A DNA stretch of 64,000 nucleotides from an uncultured delta proteobacterium (GCA_963745035.1 CAVUVW010000027.1:224001-288000); one strand, 5' to 3'; counted from the first letter of the stretch, positions 1-12,748 are shown. Notes: generated from the letters alone by a model not told the origin. Translations and numbers: made by a program.

Positions 1-1080
1 CATCCACTCGGGGCGATTGATCATGATGTACTCTTTATCCTTTCTTCGTCTTGCAAGAGGCGGCACCAGTTCGGGCGGCAGGTCCTCTCTGAGCGAGCCG
101 ACCCTGAGCTCATCGGTGTTCGCCTGCAGGAAAGCGGTCTGTCCTTCCGGCGAGAGATACCAATTGATGAAAACGCGCGCCGCGTAAGGGTGTGGGTGTT
201 GGTTCAGCAGCACCATGGCGCCGGAGCCGGAACCGATCCCCGGTTGCTCCTCGATCTGGTACGGGTCGAGCTCGGTGACGGGAAGCTTCTGCAGCGCCGC
301 GCGGTCGATCCTCCGGCACAAGAAACACAGCGGGTATTTTCCTTGCGCCAGCCAGTCGGTTCCCTGACGGAGGTCGCGGAACATCGTCGGTTCCATATCG
401 CGCAGCACGCGCTCGATAAATTTCGGTCCGAGCCGGGGATGGTGATACACGTAAGTCAACGCGCTCGAGCCCTGGCCCGGACGGATTTGCAGCGCCGCCC
501 ACTTGCCCTTCCACTTGGGCTGAACCAGATCCCAGGCCGATTTGATTTCTTTCTCGTTGACCATGCTGGTGTTGAACGAGATCGGCGCACCGTAAAGCGC
601 GCCTTCGTACATGAAGATGTACTGGCCTTCCGGGTCGATGTAATGGTGCTTTCCCTGCCACCATTTCGACACGTCGCTCACGCTCGGGTGAGTCAGTATT
701 GGAGCGAGCGGTTCGATGATTTTGGCCTTGTAGAGATTGAGATAGATGGCGGAGGGAGCGCCGAGGAAAACATCGGCGAGAAATTTCCCGGCCCTGCGCT
801 CACCGAAGAGCTTGGGAAAAAGATCGCTGCCTCTTCCCATGGTCGTGCCGGCAAATTTGATTTTCGGGTAGCGCTTCTGAAAAGCGGCCCAGATCACCTG
901 CGCGTTGCCGATCGAGTCGGTCGCGTAGACGGCGACCTGTCCCTCCTCCTCCGCTCGTTTCACCGTCGCTTCCCAGTCCTGAACCGCGACAGGCCGTTCG
1001 GCCGCGGGCGCGACGCCGGTCAGGACAAACGCAAGCAGGTAAACTGAAATTACATATCGCTTCGCCAACTCGAGAATCAT
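1..1080 (-). CDS. Extracellular solute-binding protein (AfuA/TbpA-like SBP), 3' end runs off the window
   Basis: Read manually on the minus strand: GGAGG RBS, ATG at 1080, signal peptide, then WEATVKRAEEEGQVAVY, ERRAGKFLADVF, SKWWQGKHHYIDPE, WDLVQPKWKGK. No stop before position 1, so it is absent from the ORF track. Confidence 0.85.
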   Translation of the reverse strand, partial: MILELAKRYVISVYLLAFVLTGVAPAAERPVAVQDWEATVKRAEEEGQVAVYATDSIGNAQVIWAAFQKRYPKIKFAGTTMGRGSDLFPKLFGERRAGKFLADVFLGAPSAIYLNLYKAKIIEPLAPILTHPSVSDVSKWWQGKHHYIDPEGQYIFMYEGALYGAPISFNTSMVNEKEIKSAWDLVQPKWKGKWAALQIRPGQGSSALTYVYHHPRLGPKFIERVLRDMEPTMFRDLRQGTDWLAQGKYPLCFLCRRIDRAALQKLPVTELDPYQIEEQPGIGSGSGAMVLLNQHPHPYAARVFINWYLSPEGQTAFLQANTDELRVGSLREDLPPELVPPLARRRKDKEYIMINRPEWM

Positions 1081-1307
1081 AACCGTTCCTCCGTTACCCG
1101 TGTCCGTCGGCGTCCCGGTGCGGCGTCGTGAAAATAAAGAAGGCGTTTTCGAGCGGAGGTTATCCGATCGCAGCCGGCGCGGTCAACTAGGTCGGCATCG
1201 ACTTTATTTTCGGTTGAAAAGAAAACCCGGCTTCGATACGTTTCCCAGCAGGATTTGAGGCCTTTTAAGAAATGCCGGAGCCTGCGCTCTTGGCGGGGAG
1301 AACAGAG

Positions 1308-2117
1308 ATGGCGCTCGTCGATGGCTTCAGCCACCTTGTGGTTCAGGTAACCGATCTCGACCGGTCGGAAAAGTTTTACCAGGAAGTCCTGGGACTGGAC
1401 GTGGTCGGAAGGAATCTCGTGAACGAGGACGGGCCCAACGCGCTTCTCAAGACGAATACCGGCCAGATGGTTCTCCTGATCCAAGTCGCCGAAGTCGAGC
1501 CGTTCCGTCCCAATAGCAACAGCATCCATCATGCCTGGCTCTTGACGGTCGAACAGTACAGGCTCGCGCAGGAAAGATTGCAGGCCTTCGGTTATAGCAT
1601 CGAGGACAGCCGCGAAGAGTTCCGGGCGATGGGCGAAAGAAGCATGGATATCTACGATCCGGACGGTCACCGTTATCAGATCCAGGCCCACGGTCCCGAA
1701 GCGACCAAGATCATCCGGCCGAGCGCCGGCAAGGTGAACTGCGGCAAGATGGACGACTTCGACGCGGGCTCCGTTACGCCGTTCAGCAAGGAAATGTTTT
1801 TCCTGGTGCGCCTCAATGAAGGTTTCTTGGCGCTTTCGAGTTGGTGCACGCACCGAAACGGCAAGATCAAGTGGGAAAAGGAGCATTGGCGTTTCTACTG
1901 CCCGTTTCATAGCGCCACGTACAATCGCAGGGGCGAGTTCACCGGTCACCTGGAAAATGTCGGTCCGCTCAGACTGCACCCCGTCACGATCGCAGAAGAC
2001 GGGAGCGTGATCGTTGACACCGCCGAAGTTCTCGTGCGCAAAGATCATAGTCCGGATCAAGTTGTCAACGCCGCTTGCGGCGCGCGGTTCTGTGCCGCTG
2101 ACGTGGAGCGAGTTTAG
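1308..2117 (+). CDS. VOC (glyoxalase-like) domain fused to C-terminal Rieske [2Fe-2S] domain
   Basis: N-terminal FSHLVVQVTDLDRSEKFYQEVLG...YDPDGHRYQI; C-terminal CTH...CPFH Rieske ligands. GGAG RBS before ATG 1308. Confidence 0.9.
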   Translation: MALVDGFSHLVVQVTDLDRSEKFYQEVLGLDVVGRNLVNEDGPNALLKTNTGQMVLLIQVAEVEPFRPNSNSIHHAWLLTVEQYRLAQERLQAFGYSIEDSREEFRAMGERSMDIYDPDGHRYQIQAHGPEATKIIRPSAGKVNCGKMDDFDAGSVTPFSKEMFFLVRLNEGFLALSSWCTHRNGKIKWEKEHWRFYCPFHSATYNRRGEFTGHLENVGPLRLHPVTIAEDGSVIVDTAEVLVRKDHSPDQVVNAACGARFCAADVERV

Positions 2118-2153
2118 CGAGAAGTTTCAGGCCGAGTGAACAAGGAGGAGATC

Positions 2154-2621
2154 ATGGCCGATATCGAGGGCCTCAGCCACAGCGCCATTTGCGTTCATGA
2201 CCTCCGCGAAGCGGAAGACTTCTACTGCAATGTCCTTGGCGCCCGCCTCGGAACCCGCGTCAACTTCAAGACCGACGACGCCGTCCGAGGTAGATCGGTG
2301 CATGGCTCGGTCATCCTGGAAGACTACCTTCTGGCCTTGATGGTGCCGCGCGACTTTATGCCGATGCCTCCGGCGGAACAACACCGCGGCGCGCACGGCT
2401 TTCGCCACGCCTTTCGCGTGACGCGCGCTCGCTTCGACGAAATCACCGGCGAGCTCAAGCGGCGTCAGATTCTGTTCGAAGGCCCGGTGGAGCACCCCGA
2501 GCAAAGTCCTTTTGGCGAGTCGATCTACTTCAAAGACCCGAGCGGAAACTTTCTCGAAATCCTCTGGCGGCGGGACGAGCACGTGAGCTACGACAAACCC
2601 TACGTTACCGGTGTCGGATAA
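2154..2621 (+). CDS. VOC family protein
   Basis: LSHSAICVHDLREAEDFY, RHAF, SIYFKDPSGNFLEI; AGGAGG RBS. Confidence 0.9.
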   Translation: MADIEGLSHSAICVHDLREAEDFYCNVLGARLGTRVNFKTDDAVRGRSVHGSVILEDYLLALMVPRDFMPMPPAEQHRGAHGFRHAFRVTRARFDEITGELKRRQILFEGPVEHPEQSPFGESIYFKDPSGNFLEILWRRDEHVSYDKPYVTGVG

Positions 2622-2644
2622 GCAGCGAACGTACTTTTTCACGC

Positions 2645-3544
2645 ATGCTCATGGACGGCATCAATCACATTGTCATCGAAGTCGCCGATCTCGAGCGAGC
2701 CAAGGATTTTTATCGCCTGCTCGGCTTCGAATTCGCCGGCGACGATTGCATGCCGGAGTGCGGTCGCAACGCGTTGTTCCGAGCCGCTTCGGGTCAAGTC
2801 GTTATCCTCTCGGAAACTCCGCAGCCTCGTTCGCTTCCCGAAACCGGCGTGCATGAGGCCTATCGGATCAGCCCATCGAACCGCGACGCCGTCGCTAAGC
2901 AATTGGCGGATTACGACGTGCCCGTGCACAACTATGAGGAAGACCGGCCGAGCGAAAAGGGTGACAATTTTTATTTTTACGATCCGGACGGCAATCGCAT
3001 TCAGTTGATCGCGGCGGCGACTGCCGACGCACCCCGCAAGATTCTCGGCATCGACCACGCGGCGATCGAGTGTCACGACCTCGAATGGGCGGAAGATTTC
3101 TACGTAAAGCGGCTTGGCTTGACCGTGGATCATCGAGTCGGCTGGCGCACCGACGACTATGTGCGCGCCAAGCTCTGGGGCGAAGGCAAAGAGAACATGG
3201 CGCCCGGCACGCGCCGTTGGGACCAACGCTACACGGTCATGGAGCAGAAGCGGCGGCTGCCGCGTCCCAACACGCATTTTTTTGTGCGCGTCGGCGATCA
3301 GGTGCTGGGCATCTATCTCGCCACCCAACATCGCCAAGAGCCGCCCGAGGAACAAATCGTCGGCACGCCGAGAGTCGCTTTTCGCGCCAGCCGCCGAGTC
3401 CTGGATCAAACGGCGCAGCTGCTCGCGACGACGCGGACGCCGATCCAGGGGCCGGTGGAACATGCCGAGCCGGCGCCGATCGCGGCTTCCCTCTACGTCA
3501 GAGACCCGGGCGGAAATTTTCTGGAGATCTGCGTCCCGCGGTGA
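2645..3544 (+). CDS. Two-domain VOC family protein
   Basis: Two VOC repeats: INHIVIEVADLERAKDFY...DPDGNRIQL and IDHAAIECHDLEWAEDFY...DPGGNFLEI. Confidence 0.9.
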   Translation: MLMDGINHIVIEVADLERAKDFYRLLGFEFAGDDCMPECGRNALFRAASGQVVILSETPQPRSLPETGVHEAYRISPSNRDAVAKQLADYDVPVHNYEEDRPSEKGDNFYFYDPDGNRIQLIAAATADAPRKILGIDHAAIECHDLEWAEDFYVKRLGLTVDHRVGWRTDDYVRAKLWGEGKENMAPGTRRWDQRYTVMEQKRRLPRPNTHFFVRVGDQVLGIYLATQHRQEPPEEQIVGTPRVAFRASRRVLDQTAQLLATTRTPIQGPVEHAEPAPIAASLYVRDPGGNFLEICVPR

Positions 3545-3606
3545 AACGAGTCGCGGTAGCGGAACCGGTCGAGGATGGAAGATCGCAAAATCATTTAAAT
3601 TGCACG

Positions 3607-3646
3607 TTGAACCTCTGGAACCTTTGGAACCGTTGGAACTTTGGAC
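3607..3646. repeat. Degenerate 9-bp tandem repeat (GAAC core)
   Basis: ttgaacctc tggaacctt tggaaccgt tggaacttt; same family at 5074, 14387 and 58618. Confidence 0.65.
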
Positions 3647-3751
3647 AATTGAATTGAAATCCGCTAAGTCAAAAATGGCACTCGTGCTTCTCCAACATTC
3701 TGCCGTCGATCTCATCGATCCTCGATCCTCAAACTTCTCGTCGGAGGTACC

Positions 3752-4966
3752 ATGGCTGAACTCTACCCCTACCCGCGCTTTTCCCTGACCGAAAGAGACC
3801 GCCGCTGGAAGGCCGTGCGAGACCTGATGCGTCAGCACCGGCTCGATGTCATCGTTACGCCGAACAACACCGGCCACTCGATGGACTTTCAGTCGAACAC
3901 TCGCTACCTCACTCATTGCGGCGGCGGCGGCGATGCCGATATCGCGGCGGTTTTTCCGTTGGAAGGAGAGGTGACCGCCATCGCGACCAGCGCGGAGCCG
4001 CGCTGGCCGCCGGTTCAGGACTGGACCCAGGATGTGCGCGAGGCCCGGCGCAACTATGGGCGGGTGATCGTCGAGCGGCTGAAGGAACTAAAGGTCGAGC
4101 GCGGGCGCATCGGCATCACCGGTCTCGGTGAGGTCGAGGGAACGCGCACGCCTGAAGGAACCATCCTTTACGGCACCTGGAAGCAGATTCGCGAGTCGTT
4201 TCCCCAAGCCGAGCTGGTCGATGCGACCGAGGTTCTGGCCGAAGTGCGCTATGTGAAAAGCGTCGAGGAAATCGCGGCGCTGACAAAGTCCATGGAGATC
4301 ATCGAGCTCGCTTATGAGGCGGAGATCAACGCGGCCAAACCCGGGGTGAAGGACTGGGACGTGTGGGCGGAAACGCAATGCGCCCTCATGCGCAACGGCT
4401 CGGAGATGCCGGTGCATTGCAACTGGGTCTCGGGGAAAAAACCCGAGCGCACTCTCACCCGTCCGAGCATGCGCATTCTCGAGCGCGGCGATCTGATCAT
4501 CAACGAAGTCGAGTCCTCCTGGATCGGCTACCGCTCCCAAGGGGTTCAGCCGGTCTTCGTCGGAGTGGCCGACCCGGTGTTCCTGGAGCTGATCAAAGTC
4601 CAAAGAGAAATCTTCAATCGCATGATGGAAAATCTCAAACCCGGAGTGACGGTGAAGGAATTAGCCGAGCTGGCGGCAACCTGCGCGGAACGAGCGGCGC
4701 CGACGTCCGGTCCGGCGGCTGGAGCTACCGCGCAGCTCACCATGCACGGACGCGGCGCGGGCGACGATGGGCCGATTATCACCTCCCACGCTCGCAGCCC
4801 GCGCCAGCTCTCGGTCGCTTTACGCGAGAACATGGTCTTTATTTTCAAGCCTTCCGCGAAAGCGAGGGACGGCTCGCTTTGCACATGGGGCGACACCGTG
4901 TTGATCACCGCTAAAGGCGGCCAAAGATTGGGAAAGCGGCCGCACGATCTCGCGGTGTCGACGTGA
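3752..4966 (+). CDS. M24 (pita-bread fold) peptidase/creatinase-like protein with non-canonical active site
   Basis: PRFSLTERDRRW N-terminus, RYVKSVEEI, HGRG, WGDTVLIT; GGAGG RBS. Confidence 0.8.
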   Translation: MAELYPYPRFSLTERDRRWKAVRDLMRQHRLDVIVTPNNTGHSMDFQSNTRYLTHCGGGGDADIAAVFPLEGEVTAIATSAEPRWPPVQDWTQDVREARRNYGRVIVERLKELKVERGRIGITGLGEVEGTRTPEGTILYGTWKQIRESFPQAELVDATEVLAEVRYVKSVEEIAALTKSMEIIELAYEAEINAAKPGVKDWDVWAETQCALMRNGSEMPVHCNWVSGKKPERTLTRPSMRILERGDLIINEVESSWIGYRSQGVQPVFVGVADPVFLELIKVQREIFNRMMENLKPGVTVKELAELAATCAERAAPTSGPAAGATAQLTMHGRGAGDDGPIITSHARSPRQLSVALRENMVFIFKPSAKARDGSLCTWGDTVLITAKGGQRLGKRPHDLAVST

Positions 4967-5073
4967 AGTTCCTCAAACGCGAACGTGAGGGCAGTGTCCG
5001 ATCAGTCCAGCTGCGCTGCGCTGTCTTTTCGTCCCAAATTTAAGCAATCGATCTTGCTAAATTTATTCTTGAC

Positions 5074-5119
5074 GTTTTGAACGGAGCGCAGCGGTTGAAC
5101 TGCTTGAACGTTTTGAACG
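5074..5119. repeat. GAAC-family intergenic repeat
   Basis: ttttgaacggagcgcagcggttgaactgcttgaacg; reverse complement resembles 14387-14429. Confidence 0.65.
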
Positions 5120-5126
5120 CCGTTCT

Positions 5127-6266
5127 CTATTTAGTGAACCCGTAAAAGCGCGCGGTGTTATCGACGAGCAGCTTCGCTTGCTCGCCTCGCCGATATCACT
5201 TCGCTTGAGGAAGACATCGACCGCGCCGTAGAGCCGGTCACCGTGCGGGATGTCCGAGCCGTAAACCCAGCACTCGTCGCCGAACTCTTCGATGGCGAAC
5301 GGCAGCAGTTTCTCGTCGACCTCGAAGCCGAAGTAAATCTGTCCGCGCTCGATGTATTCCTTGGGCGGATGCTTGCCCGTGTAGCCTCTGTGAAAATCCA
5401 CTCCCGCGCGCGCGCCGGGAAAGCCGCTGTATTCTTCGATTCGCTCCACCAACGCGGGCACCCAGGAGCAGCCGGCTTCGAGAAACGCAATTTTCAAGTT
5501 CGGATAGCGATCGGCGATGCCTTTCGAGATTACGCGGTGAAAGGCGAATTGCACGGTGAGCCAAAACGATATCGCCGTCTTGTCGTGGTGCGTGTCGTTC
5601 ACTTGGCCAAGCGCGCGAAAGCTGTGTCCGGTATGCACAGCCACGGGAAGCCCGGTTTCGTTGGCCGCAGCCCAGATCGGTTCCATGGGCGGGTCGTCGA
5701 TTCTCACGTCGCCGGTGACGCCGAGCAACATCACGGCCACCGCTCCTCTCTCCTTGCCCCGCTCGATTTCCCGAACCGACGCCTGCGGATCGACGGGATC
5801 GATGATCGTGACCCACTTTAAGCGATCGGGATATTGACTGGTAAGGTCGGCGACCCAACTGTTGTACGCGCGCATCATCGCCACTGCCAACGCCCGATCG
5901 TAAGTGATCGGATAGGAGAGAAACATAGTCGGATAGATCACTTGAACTTCTGTATTCTCGCGGTCCAACTGTTCGATCCGAGCTTTGACCGAGCGCATCT
6001 CCGCGCTTTCGACGGGGTCGTGAGGACTGATGCCCGGCGTGACTTTCGCCGGCACGCTCGTTTTTGCTGAGAGGAAAACCGGCTTGCTGATAAGGCCCGC
6101 TCCGCACGGGAAAAGAGCGGGTATCGATCATCCAGTAGAGCGGCCCGTCCGGACCGGTCTCGATGATACTCGGCTTGCGCTCTTTTAATTTCGGATCCCA
6201 GTATTTGTCCGAAAACGTCACTTCGGATTCCGATACATGCCCGTCGGCGTCCCACGCCTTGATCAT
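5127..6266 (-). CDS. Amidohydrolase_2 (TIM-barrel) family protein, split by two frameshifts (near 6060 and near 5175)
   Basis: DADGH N-terminus in ORF 5238..6284; VIYPT, AVHTG, FLEAG, GSDIPHGD in ORF 5063..6055; shifted C-terminus KLLVDNTARFYGFTK ending at TAG 5127-5129. Confidence 0.85.
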
Positions 6267-6431: not shown

Positions 6432-7640
6432 ATGATTACTTTCGTCGACGTCGAAGAGGCGCGGGAGCGGATCAAGGATCAGATTTATCTGTCGCCCTTT
6501 CCTCACTCGGCAACCATCAGCCGGATGACCGGAAACAAAGTGTTCTTCAAACTGGAGAATTTGCAGCTCACGGGCTCGTTCAAGGAACGCGGCGCGCTCA
6601 ACCGGCTGCTGACGCTCACGTCGCAGGATGCACAGCGCGGCGTGATTGCCGCGAGCGCCGGCAACCACGGCATGGCCGTGGCTTATCACAGCCGGCGTCT
6701 GGGTATCGCTTCGACCATCGTCATGCCGCGATCGGCGCCGCTCATCAAAGTCACCCGCGTGCGCCAGTATGGCGCCCAGTGCCTGCTCCACGGCAGCGAT
6801 TACGACGGCGCCTACGCCGAAGCGAAGCGCCTCAGCGCGGAACAGGGTCTCACTTTCATCTCGGCCTTCGATGATCCGTGGATCGTCGCCGGCCAGGGCA
6901 CCATCGGCCTCGAGCTCTACGAACAGAATCCCGAGCTCGACGCGGCGGTCGTGCCGGTGGGCGGCGGCGGCTTGATTGCCGGCGTCGCGCTCGCGTTAAA
7001 AACCTTGATACCCAAGTTGCGCATCATCGGCGTGCAAAGCGAAGCGGTGCCGTCGATGAAAGCAGCGCTGGAAAAAGGCGCGCCGGCAAAGCTGCCGGCG
7101 GCAACGACCATCGCCGACGGCATCGCCGTGCGCGCCGTCGGAGCAACGCCCCTCGAGTTGGTGAAACACTACGTCGACGATATCGTCACGGTGAGCGAGG
7201 GCCAGATCGCCAACGCGGTGCTAACTTTGCTCGAGGTGGAAAAGACGGTCGCCGAGGGTGCCGCTGCCGTGCCGCTGGCGGCATTGCTCAACAAGAAAAC
7301 TTCGCTGGCGGGAAAGAACGTCGGGATTGTTGTCACGGGCGGCAACATCGATATGAACCTGATTTCGCGCATTATCGAGAGCGGATTGATCCAGGACGGA
7401 CGCCTCGGCAGATTCGCCGTGGTGATCTCCGACCGGCCGGGCAGCCTGGCGCGGTTGTCGCAGCGGGTCGCGGACTTGGGCGCCAATATTTTACAGATCA
7501 GCCATAGCCGCGGCTTCGGAAAGATGGCGATCGGCGAGACCGAAGTCGAGCTGATCCTGGAAACCGCCGGCGCCGAGCATATCCAGCGGATCTACGACAC
7601 CCTCAGCGCCGACAAATTCAAGATCAAAAACGAACCCTAG
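6432..7640 (+). CDS. ilvA: Threonine ammonia-lyase (medium form with C-terminal ACT domain)
   Basis: KLENLQLTGSFKERG PLP lysine motif, SAGNH, PVGGGGLIAG, C-terminal DRPGSL ACT domain. Confidence 0.92.
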   Translation: MITFVDVEEARERIKDQIYLSPFPHSATISRMTGNKVFFKLENLQLTGSFKERGALNRLLTLTSQDAQRGVIAASAGNHGMAVAYHSRRLGIASTIVMPRSAPLIKVTRVRQYGAQCLLHGSDYDGAYAEAKRLSAEQGLTFISAFDDPWIVAGQGTIGLELYEQNPELDAAVVPVGGGGLIAGVALALKTLIPKLRIIGVQSEAVPSMKAALEKGAPAKLPAATTIADGIAVRAVGATPLELVKHYVDDIVTVSEGQIANAVLTLLEVEKTVAEGAAAVPLAALLNKKTSLAGKNVGIVVTGGNIDMNLISRIIESGLIQDGRLGRFAVVISDRPGSLARLSQRVADLGANILQISHSRGFGKMAIGETEVELILETAGAEHIQRIYDTLSADKFKIKNEP

Positions 7641-11699: not shown

Positions 11700-12748
11700 A
11701 ATGCTTATACGGTTGTTTCAGCAAGCCCCAATAGGTTGTGTGTTTATCCATGATTGAAAGTTTTGGCCAAATCCTGAGCGCCTCGAATGCGGCCGTAAGC
11801 TGTAGGCCGCTGTTGAGTTCCCAGACCGAGCAAGGTCTGGAAAGCGGCCATGGGTTGGTGACGCCGATTGTGGCGAAAAACAAACTCATCGAGGTAAACC
11901 TGGAGTTGCCCGCGGCTGACACCGTGGTAGGTGCCGATCAACCATTGCTGGAGGTTGCCCATAGCGCGGTCAGCCAAGGGCACCACCGATTTGGCTCCCT
12001 TGCGCAATTCGTTTGTCTTCGGTTGCACCCGCGCGATGTGCCGATACCCGCTTTGGTCCAAACCCGTGAAACTCTTCAGAGCATCGGTGTAGAGGGTCGA
12101 GCCAGGAGCAATGTGCTTGTGGATAAATCCACTAAGCGTGGTTGCTTTAAAGTCTGGGATCACACCCATTCGCACTCGCCCCGACGCCTTGCCGCGTTTC
12201 TCAACGGCCACCAGGACAAGAGCGGCTCGACGCCCTTTAAGTTGACGACTACCACGCAATCCCACCTGGGGACCGCCGATCCAAGCTTCATCAATCTCTA
12301 CCTCTCCATGCAGAGGCTCGCGGGCCAAGTTGACCATCGCTCGGCGCAGCTTGTGAAGCATCATCCAGGCCGTTTCGTAACGCTTCAGTTCCAGTTGACG
12401 CTGGAGCAAAAGCGCAGAAATCCCACGCTTATCAGTCGTCATCAGGTACGTCGCCCAAAACCACAAGACCAACGATATTTTGGTGTTGTGGAGAATAGTC
12501 CCCGAGGTCAGAGACACCTGATGTCGACACGCGGCACACTGCCAGAGTCGCCTCAGGACATACGCGCGCTGGTTCCCGCACCGTGGACACTTAAATCCGT
12601 CTGGCCAACGGCACATAGCCAGATACTCCTGACAGGCCTCTTCGCTAGCGAACTGCCGCTGGAATTCTCGCACACTACGGGGAAACGCGGGCCGTGCCAT
12701 GCCCGCACACTATATGTTGGGTTTTGCTGAAACAACCGTATAAGCATT
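11700..12748. mobile_element. Complete IS1595-family insertion sequence (1049 bp)
   Basis: Perfect 25-bp TIRs AATGCTTATACGGTTGTTTCAGCAA (11700-11724 / 12724-12748); 8-bp TSD AGATATGT (11692-11699 and 12749-12756). Confidence 0.95.
11744..12700 (-). CDS. IS1595 family DDE transposase
   Basis: Zn ribbon CPRC...CAAC, HTH region AWMMLHKLR, VEIDE, YTD, YLDEFVFRHNRR. Confidence 0.95.
   Translation of the reverse strand: MARPAFPRSVREFQRQFASEEACQEYLAMCRWPDGFKCPRCGNQRAYVLRRLWQCAACRHQVSLTSGTILHNTKISLVLWFWATYLMTTDKRGISALLLQRQLELKRYETAWMMLHKLRRAMVNLAREPLHGEVEIDEAWIGGPQVGLRGSRQLKGRRAALVLVAVEKRGKASGRVRMGVIPDFKATTLSGFIHKHIAPGSTLYTDALKSFTGLDQSGYRHIARVQPKTNELRKGAKSVVPLADRAMGNLQQWLIGTYHGVSRGQLQVYLDEFVFRHNRRHQPMAAFQTLLGLGTQQRPTAYGRIRGAQDLAKTFNHG

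Follow-up and report, generated by a model that had tools for sequence, protein, structure and literature searches.

A conserved cassette of a VOC-Rieske fusion protein, two further VOC proteins and an M24-fold protein in soil bacteria

A VOC-Rieske fusion gene heads a conserved four-gene cassette

We analysed a stretch of 64,000 nucleotides (nt) of DNA from an uncultured delta proteobacterium (GCA_963745035.1, CAVUVW010000027.1:224001-288000; G000:C27:224001-288000 in our numbering), hereafter the window, whose source assembly amounts to 7.4 Mb in 28 contigs and is 92.6% complete with 5.8% contamination. Gene content in the window was read from the list of open reading frames (ORFs) together with Pfam matches. 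Near the window's start, four genes on the + strand (1308-4966), separated by gaps of 36, 23 and 207 nt, encode a fusion of a vicinal oxygen chelate (VOC) domain with a Rieske domain (VOC-Rieske), a single-domain VOC protein (VOC2), a two-domain VOC protein (di-VOC) and a protein of the M24 fold (M24) (Table 1). These four make up a conserved cassette that recurs in soil and rhizosphere metagenomes. A preliminary description of this DNA, made from the sequence alone, had noticed four VOC domains in three linked genes, the first fused to an intact Rieske domain, and both Pfam and the motifs confirm that arrangement.

VOC-Rieske consists of an N-terminal VOC domain, a linker with a conserved cysteine (C145) and a C-terminal Rieske [2Fe-2S] domain. 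It matches Glyoxalase (PF00903, E 3.6e-13) and Rieske (PF00355, E 1.6e-6), the latter at 28.3 bits against a cut-off of 20.3, which makes the C-terminal part a member of the Rieske family; PF00903 exceeds its gathering cut-off in VOC-Rieske, VOC2 and di-VOC alike, placing all three in the VOC superfamily. The Rieske motifs read CTH...CPFH, with 15 residues from H to C, and C180, H182, C198 and H201 of this domain are invariant in an alignment of 81 VOC-Rieske sequences, as is H74 of the VOC domain. The VOC site is of the H/H/Q type (H9, H74 and Q124/Q126) with a further glutamine, Q53, also kept, and H9, Q53, Q124, Q126 and C145 are at least 90% conserved across the same sequences. Compared with the soluble Rieske protein 9rk4, VOC-Rieske is without the second cysteine of CTHLGC and of CPCH; in bc1/b6f-type Rieske proteins, those second cysteines make a disulfide. 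When the AlphaFold2 (AF2) model of VOC-Rieske (pLDDT 76.9) was compared with solved structures, no chain spanned both domains, the best TMq being 0.39.

A search of 5.8 billion proteins returned 292 VOC-Rieske homologues at E <= 0.001. The preliminary description had left it to such a search whether the fusion was sporadic; it is recurrent, most of the best 120 of the 292 homologues carrying both domains, and nearly all of these 120 are about 269 amino acids long with PF00903 and PF00355. Their database names are 'VOC family protein', 'Rieske Fe-S protein' or similar. Since the full-length relatives fall into a handful of 50%-identity clusters (P0241, P0242, P0245 and P0247), VOC-Rieske can be regarded as one compact family. 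Longer fused forms, of at least 472 amino acids, did not appear at E <= 1e-20, which is weak evidence.

Scanning one genome per species gave 14 loci, 11 of them with a full-length VOC-Rieske relative, and a scan of metagenomes gave 75 further loci, so that 86 loci with 82 VOC-Rieske genes at a coverage of at least 85% were available for comparison; duplicates and near-duplicates (L015/L043, L041/L042, L046/L047 and L066/L067) were kept in the counts. The Rieske domain is present in each of the 82 full-length genes. The bins of the 11 genome loci are labelled Candidatus Binatia, Acidiferrales, Thermoleophilaceae, 'delta proteobacterium' and Alphaproteobacteria, and the order VOC-Rieske, VOC2, di-VOC, M24 is found in every genome locus with enough flank, twice in L014. 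Across the 86 loci, the three VOC genes and M24 stand together in this fixed order, a conservation on which the preliminary description had made its own reading depend. VOC2 comes next after VOC-Rieske in 63 of the 65 cases with at least 700 nt of room, di-VOC is third in 47 of 50 (at least 1700 nt) and M24 fourth in 31 of 40 (at least 3100 nt). Among the departures, M24 lies on the opposite strand behind an SBP (solute-binding protein) gene and a permease gene in L044 and L052, and it is absent from L074, L075, L079 and the first cassette of L081; the second cassettes of L060 and L063 are without di-VOC, and in L086 VOC-Rieske is followed by a single VOC gene. In a literature that did not extend to subscription journals, we found no description of a VOC-Rieske fusion or of this VOC-Rieske/VOC/M24 layout, in agreement with the preliminary description, which recognised no described pathway of this kind.

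Whole cassettes have also multiplied. Tandem double cassettes with a second full VOC-Rieske occur in L014, L045, L046/L047, L051, L060, L063, L075 (inverted) and L081; L066/L067 hold merely an extra M24 upstream. The tandem copies are about 55% identical and form two separate old clades in a concatenated tree, from which we conclude that entire cassettes were duplicated and retained; the two copies suggest two substrate specificities or a mixed complex. Distance matrices computed pairwise for each of the four proteins over 30 complete cassettes correlate with one another at r 0.82-0.95, values of a kind that relatedness alone lifts.

In genomes around the window's own, the distribution is patchy. 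At E <= 1e-30, VOC-Rieske was found in one of 24 other genomes of the genus (G205, flagged as unpublished), and it occurs in two of 16 other genomes of the order; none of 200 sampled genomes of the phylum had it at E <= 1e-40. M24 orthologues of 75-80% identity are present in 22 of the 24 genomes of the genus, G205 among them. This patchiness, together with the nine of 40 cases with room in which M24 is missing or on the other strand, could be taken to mean that the four genes are independent and merely travel together. We consider that barely credible, given that bins carrying the labels of several phyla share one fixed gene order, that the distances of the four proteins are correlated and cassettes are duplicated en bloc, and that natural fusions join members of the set.

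Putative metal sites, paralogy and Rieske-less relatives

The VOC domains carry three conserved types of site, namely H/H/E in VOC2, H/Q/H/Q in both N-type domains (the VOC domain of VOC-Rieske and the N-domain of di-VOC) and H/-/E in the C-domain of di-VOC. In VOC2, the triad of H9, H85 and E135 does not vary across 65 sequences, in which H50, H114 and Y125 also reach a conservation of at least 90%. The di-VOC N-domain has an H/H/Q site (H8, H70 and Q120) with a further conserved glutamine, Q51, and its C-domain, which carries a conserved insertion of about 45 residues, keeps H138 and E294. Three of the four ligand triads listed in the preliminary description (H/H/Q, H/H/E and H/H/Q) therefore stood as given; the fourth, H/R/E, is corrected to H/-/E, as alignment to VOC2 places a deletion of the second histidine beside R243/V244.

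By hhalign, VOC2 and the di-VOC C-domain are paralogues (99.8%, E 6e-30), as are the VOC domain of VOC-Rieske and the di-VOC N-domain (99.7%, E 3e-25). Our reference was a genuine two-domain extradiol dioxygenase from the same genome (L096:1477-2388) that matches the HsaC structure 2zi8 at E 1.5e-31; di-VOC is colinear with its N-domain and with the first part of its C-domain (hhalign 91.9%). This paralogy leads us to view the split pair as mirroring a two-domain extradiol dioxygenase. Judged by these profile comparisons, the VOC set is made of two putative 'N-type + C-type' pairs, one of them fused and the other split, with the Rieske domain on the N-type half.

VOC2 is the candidate catalytic subunit. 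Its match to the HsaC-like dioxygenase is weak (hhalign probability 31%, E 5e-4), and in it six VOC2 residues align to the GH, RHHS, QH, GRH, Y and E motifs of the catalytic domain. The residues H9, H85 and E135 fall on the HsaC-like ligand positions and form a 2-His-1-carboxylate set, and H50, H114 and Y125 fall on RHHS, GRH and Y at this probability of just 31%. From BphC and HsaC work, we take GH, QH and E to be the iron ligands and RHHS, GRH and Y to supply the catalytic His, His and Tyr. VOC2 also has local NCBIfam matches to HsaC and to the start of the catalytic domain of BphC (TIGR03213, positions 136-181, E 1e-6).

Two natural fusions join domains that are separate proteins in the window. 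The 418-residue P0245 runs from a C-type VOC through an N-type VOC into a Rieske domain, and a 448-residue ORF (L081:13193-14539) continues from a VOC2-like domain (52% identity) into a di-VOC-like part; a stop lost through error is possible in the latter, as it stands on a single metagenome contig. Together with the paralogy, these fusions make a hetero-oligomer plausible. In a predicted three-chain complex of VOC-Rieske, di-VOC and VOC2, a control with chain 2 swapped scored within 0.20 of the complex itself, too close for the prediction to speak for or against it.

The fourth protein, M24, exceeds the cut-offs of PF01321 and PF00557 and matches prolidase 4fkc in Foldseek at E 2.9e-22, which assigns it to the Creatinase_N/pita-bread fold. 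In an alignment to the Pyrococcus prolidases 1wy2 and 1pv9, its canonical ligand positions read E252, Q263, A336, K366 and G380, corresponding to 209, 220, 284, 313 and 327 of 1pv9, which we take to be the metal ligands (D, D, H, E and E). All five are substituted, so that M24 does not have the ligand set of prolidase or aminopeptidase P, and the earlier reading of it as non-canonical holds. Among 40 M24 orthologues, Q263, K366 and G380 do not vary, while conservation is at least 90% for E252 and A336; the former three are kept also in M24 paralogues of 33-39% identity. Together with the motifs HCGGGGDAD, HCNW and HGRGAGDDGP, the E/Q/A/K/G pattern marks M24 as a subfamily of its own. This subfamily has at least 1293 relatives, which databases name 'Xaa-Pro aminopeptidase' or 'M24 family metallopeptidase', and an ESM Atlas search with M24 returned solely clusters auto-named 'M24 family metallopeptidase'; since the metal ligands are missing, these 'peptidase' labels are probably wrong.

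Creatinase, EutD/DoeA and DddP resemble M24 in having the Creatinase_N and pita-bread fold, and they act on small non-peptide molecules; creatinase is metal-free. In Foldseek, the AF2 model of M24 (pLDDT 84.2) is about equally alike to prolidases, EutD, DddP and creatinase (TM ~0.7), and none of them is singled out as the identity of M24. Unlike these enzymes, M24 has no family match: it scores 67.5 bits against 575 for the ectoine hydrolase family NF038259, 25.3 against 613 for TIGR02993 and 37.9 against 600 for DddP, which leaves it under the ectoine hydrolase cut-offs, and its match to creatinase chains is weak (E 8.8e-5 for 7yto). The stretches of low pLDDT in the model coincide with highly conserved loops (41-43, 58-62, 81-95 and 130-132), which would fit contacts with a partner or ligand.

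Cassettes without the Rieske domain also exist. We compared eight such regions, seven from the genus and one from the window's own genome. Their gene order is [Flavin_Reduct]-[NMT1-type SBP]-[SBP_bac_6/1]-two-domain VOC (302 amino acids)-M24 paralogue (36%)-single VOC (195 amino acids)-M24 (77%), complete in L100 (1563-8829), L102 and L106 and partial or decayed in L099, L101 and L103; L104 has a 75% identical M24 with weak and distant SBP and VOC matches. With its H/H/E site, the single VOC falls into the VOC2 family (97.7%); the two-domain VOC has H/-/E in its first domain, and its second matches the VOC domain of VOC-Rieske (98.6%) with H/Q/H/Q. On contig 11 of the window's genome (L105:7345-10675) lies a second, distant SBP-VOC-VOC-M24 set, in which M24 is 38% identical and the SBP matches that of the window (46-59%) in two pieces, as though broken. 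The Rieske fusion therefore represents one lineage within a broader SBP-VOC-M24 system. The side-by-side M24 paralogues of the Rieske-less cassette suggest a heterodimer.

Surroundings of the cassette

The features of this part of the window are collected in Table 1. The ORF list starts VOC2 at GTG 2136; we place its start at ATG 2154 instead, because the orthologues begin with MADxE and because an extra A at window position 2148, present in two runs (X1, DNA, and X17, an RNA library), fits a non-coding stretch. The gap between di-VOC and M24 is 207 nt here, against less than about 100 nt in most other loci, and contains four TTGGAAC units 9 bp apart (3610-3645), three of them exact and the first reading CTGGAAC, which may be a candidate regulator site. 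A scan of the locus for promoters and terminators gave no signal exceeding shuffled background.

Table 1. Positions of the cassette genes and adjoining features in the window
Feature	Position	Strand	Basis or remark
SBP, divergently transcribed, periplasmic	1..1080	-	Pfam SBP_bac_8/6/1; clipped by window start
VOC-Rieske fusion, 269 amino acids	1308..2117	+	Pfam PF00903 + PF00355
VOC2, 155 amino acids, one Glyoxalase domain	2154..2621	+	Pfam PF00903
di-VOC, 299 amino acids, two domains	2645..3544	+	Pfam: two Glyoxalase stretches
Intergenic spacer, 207 nt, with TTGGAAC-type repeats	3545..3751	.	Sequence reading
M24-fold protein, 404 amino acids, Creatinase_N + pita-bread	3752..4966	+	Pfam PF01321 + PF00557
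Amidohydro_2 gene, convergent, two frames	6266-5063	-	PF04909, E 1.4e-20
Threonine ammonia-lyase with ACT domain	6432-7640	+	TIGR01127, 467.6 bits against a cut-off of 378.75
ORF of 318 amino acids, CxxC pairs, transposase-like in appearance	11744-12700	-	Reading of ORF only

Contigs from three RNA libraries, which can hold DNA, cover parts of all four genes, some of them nearly identical to the window (X17 records 9 and 10, with one other letter each). No RNA-library contig spans any gene junction with 31 letters on each side, so that these contigs give no sign of co-transcription, and stretches left uncovered are uninformative. At least half of the sampled words of the stretch 1100-5000 are present in each of 11 runs from four studies, labelled rhizosphere, soil or winery metagenome (one has no label), and the run that matches it best may be the source sample itself.

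Neighbouring genes were counted in the 41 loci of at least 6 kb by clustering ORFs with BLAST and scanning one representative per cluster with Pfam. Some SBP gene lies near the cassette in 33 of them, so that the SBP, which the preliminary description had taken to capture the substrate, is indeed a frequent companion; in 28 loci it is an SBP_bac_1/8/6 protein homologous to that of the window and in five, beside divergent cassettes, an SBP_bac_5 protein in its place. The window's SBP is clipped, and the full gene (L020:11950-13080) encodes 376 amino acids. Its nearest solved relatives are the ferric-iron binding proteins YfuA, SfuA and HitA, all weak matches (best E 9e-6). Two loci (L009:1827-7770 and L010:3-7755) each have four SBP paralogues upstream of the cassette, 40-76% identical to the window SBP, with further genes in between that include a LigXa-like oxygenase and a cupin.

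These binding proteins could be read as a sign of metal-chelate processing, for example of a ferric catecholate, in which the SBP would deliver the chelate and the Rieske domain reduce its metal, while the catechol would be bound or cleaved by the VOC proteins and an amide split by M24. The ferric-iron relatives, the SBP_bac_5 proteins beside divergent cassettes and the fourfold SBP paralogues of L009 and L010 all fit such a scheme, and some SBP_bac_5 proteins bind metal-chelate complexes. The matches of the SBP are weak, however (E ~1e-5), both SBP families mostly bind other things, and no TonB receptor, siderophore esterase or iron regulator recurs in the 41 loci. Resting as it does on family resemblance alone, a role in chelate processing strikes us as highly improbable.

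Other neighbours of the cassette include a bicupin (11 of the 41 loci), a fused double permease (10), a LigXa-like Rieske oxygenase (8), an NMT1-type SBP (8), a VdcC-like UbiD decarboxylase (7) and Amidohydro_2 genes (4). As these are raw counts of gene families that are common in such genomes, the hint they give of phenolic-acid catabolism is moderate.

Two genes beside the cassette in the window are excluded from the system because they are not conserved with it. The convergent amidohydrolase gene, which had been counted into the set in the preliminary description, is broken between two frames near a run of five A at ~6058; one RNA-library contig (X17, depth 3.87) is without one letter at 6058, which would make the frame continuous, so that the frameshift may stem from an error in the assembly or from a difference between strains. 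Among solved structures, the amidohydrolase is best matched by PtmU3 (6omp, E 1.9e-22). The 11 genome loci that have a full-length VOC-Rieske relative (L006-L016) gave no Amidohydro_2 match within 8 kb, and the few loci that do hold Amidohydro_2 genes have distant ones (28-34%). The threonine ammonia-lyase gene was rejected likewise, as it is not found beside the cassette in other loci.

Proposed function and alternatives

Our preferred reading, which we put forward tentatively and hold to be somewhat short of probable, is that the cassette encodes a heteromeric VOC oxygenase of the extradiol type, with iron that the fused Rieske domain serves, and alongside it an M24 hydrolase that works without metal. 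The compound acted on would be imported and probably aromatic. The four + strand genes would form one operon-like catabolic module, fed by the adjoining binding protein of an ABC importer. VOC2 would be the catalytic subunit of an O2-dependent enzyme of the extradiol type, with a 2-His-1-carboxylate site that probably holds Fe(II), and would pair with the VOC domain of VOC-Rieske as the C- and N-domains of a two-domain extradiol dioxygenase pair with each other. The di-VOC protein would be a fused, catalytically degenerate copy of this pair, serving as a structural or substrate-handling partner. We infer that electrons would flow from the Rieske centre, tethered to the non-catalytic VOC domain, one at a time to the catalytic metal, the purpose being to keep it ferrous or make it ferrous again. 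XylT-type ferredoxins, which are separate proteins, carry out such a reactivation for catechol 2,3-dioxygenases. M24 would contribute a hydrolytic step before or after the oxidative cleavage, and the substrate would be polar and imported, most likely a dihydroxylated aromatic or heteroaromatic compound derived from phenolic acids.

Among the closest known systems are the Type I extradiol dioxygenases (BphC, HsaC and XylE), in which VOC domains are likewise paired, one catalytic and one not; the catalytic domain has a 2-His-1-Glu site with, by the weak hhalign alignment, His, His and Tyr at the second-shell positions aligned to those of VOC2. Through XylT, a [2Fe-2S] protein is also genetically tied to a dioxygenase there. 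Unlike in these enzymes, the catalytic and non-catalytic domains here are on separate chains, the 'non-catalytic' domains keep H/Q/H/Q, a second, degenerate two-domain copy (di-VOC) is present, and no meta-pathway genes follow the cassette. The iron-sulfur partner differs as well, in that XylT is a free plant-type four-Cys [2Fe-2S] ferredoxin, whereas the present one is of the Rieske type (two Cys and two His) and fused, and so is no XylT.

Several observations weigh against the extradiol-type reading. VOC2 stays far under the extradiol cut-offs (TIGR03213, 28.4 bits against 366; TIGR03211, 19.9 against 320; HsaC, 19.5 against 450), and as these curated cut-offs are missed, we reject it as an ordinary member of the extradiol family; its hhalign probability to the dioxygenase is no higher than 31%. 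The best solved relatives of the VOC2 profile are not extradiol dioxygenases at all, being small VOC proteins of unknown function, FosA/FosB and ChaP, and the Y-x2-D-P-x-G-x3-E motif is widespread among VOC proteins. The conserved H/Q/H/Q sites sit in supposedly non-catalytic domains, for which the reading offers no explanation. Nor does it assign a defined reaction to M24, whose mean pairwise identity of 0.70 exceeds the 0.51-0.64 of the other three proteins, a degree of conservation that fits a central role better than an accessory one. The nearest solved relatives of the SBP bind ferric iron rather than aromatic acids. Most loci have no neighbours from aromatic pathways, and those that do include duplicates; in the 41 loci neither a reductase gene for the Rieske domain nor a BphD-type hydrolase, semialdehyde dehydrogenase or hydratase/aldolase gene recurs beside the cassette. 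Finally, Rieske-less cassettes with the same three VOC sites and a 77% identical M24 mean that the chemistry needs no Rieske domain as such. The preliminary description had envisaged an enzyme fed by, or reactivated through, its own Rieske centre; the Rieske domain is not shared by all cassettes of this type, Rieske-less versions being common in the genus.

The same Rieske-less cassettes bear on a second possibility, namely that the Rieske centre is the obligatory donor, at each turnover, to a mononuclear iron in the VOC fold, as in Rieske non-heme iron oxygenases. Such an enzyme would consume reductant and would hydroxylate, demethylate or cleave a substrate unable to supply electrons itself, with a flavin reductase substituting for the Rieske domain where the latter is missing. 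The invariant Rieske ligands and the presence of the domain in each of the 82 full-length genes are consistent with it, the conserved H/Q/H/Q sites adjoining that domain may form a second metal site, and the Rieske-less cassettes of L100, L102 and L106 begin with a Flavin_Reduct gene (PF01613, E 5e-23) that could encode the alternative donor. It may instead be part of a sulfonate-type monooxygenase system, as it adjoins an SsuA-type NMT1 binding protein, and flavin reductase genes are present in just three of the eight Rieske-less loci and two of the 41 long VOC-Rieske loci. The lack of a recurrent reductase gene also tells against this possibility, there being nothing evident in those 41 loci to reload the Rieske centre. 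We know of no VOC enzyme that is fed by an iron-sulfur centre. On balance an enzyme of this kind seems to us rather unlikely, and it would be categorically new.

Two known groups of enzymes offer partial parallels to such a use of reductant. In Rieske non-heme iron oxygenases (NdoB, LigXa), the protein to which a Rieske domain is covalently attached either contains a mononuclear 2-His-1-carboxylate site or is partnered with one. Unlike in their alpha subunits, the partner in VOC-Rieske has the VOC fold, with no Ring_hydroxyl_A or LigXa_C (START-like) Pfam match, so that VOC-Rieske is not one of them; the Rieske domain is C-terminal here and N-terminal there, and the cassette has no ferredoxin or reductase genes. 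The other parallel is ChaP of chartreusin biosynthesis, a small VOC protein that relies on an outside reductant and that is reported to be a flavin-dependent VOC dioxygenase cleaving C-C bonds (PMC12308417). ChaP contradicts the statement in the preliminary description that characterised VOC enzymes need no external electron carrier. The VOC2 profile does match ChaP chains among solved structures (E 1.5e-4 to 2.8e-3), but the similarity is weak (E ~1e-4), and ChaP uses reduced flavin, belongs to a polyketide pathway and has no M24 or SBP partner.

A third possibility dispenses with redox chemistry in the VOC proteins. They could act as isomerase, lyase, epoxide or thiol transferase, or bind a reactive product of M24; M24 would then be the primary enzyme whose product the VOC proteins detoxify or rearrange, and the Rieske domain would be a redox or O2 sensor or a structural element. 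This would suit the conservation of M24, stronger than that of any other member, and its occurrence alongside different VOC partners, and VOC proteins that only bind ligands do exist, DnrV being one (PMC12979805). The N-type VOC domains are moreover closest in sequence and fold to FosA, FosB and FosX, which have an H/H/E metal site. The scores for Fos families are nevertheless far under the cut-offs (at most 48 bits against at least 170; the best, 47.8 bits against 180, is that of the di-VOC N-domain for NF000496), the third ligand of these N-type domains is Gln, and the likeness gives no evidence of a resistance function. Three different conserved sites and the intact H/H/E of VOC2 suggest metal catalysis, and an invariant one-electron carrier is hard to justify without redox. 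We regard non-redox chemistry as improbable, and return to the Rieske-served, extradiol-type oxygenase as the reading that we prefer.

VOC enzymes and Rieske centres both belong to the textbook picture of aerobic aromatic catabolism, where, to our knowledge, every description so far has them as separate proteins. If the preferred reading is true, their conserved covalent fusion would be a new way to keep a non-heme iron site working or electron-fed. The boldest form of the proposal, that the cassette represents a new iron-sulfur-fed oxygenase class (a Rieske centre feeding a VOC-fold metal in a three-site heteromer) combined with a metal-free M24 hydrolase family, within a wider SBP-VOC-M24 catabolic system of soil bacteria, is doubtful in our estimation; if true, it would be the VOC-fold counterpart of the Rieske non-heme iron oxygenases. 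A large M24 subfamily now labelled as peptidases is probably misnamed. Soil lineages that are poorly known often carry the cassette or one of its Rieske-less relatives, and identification of the substrate would assign a function to thousands of database entries, possibly a step in the turnover of plant aromatics.

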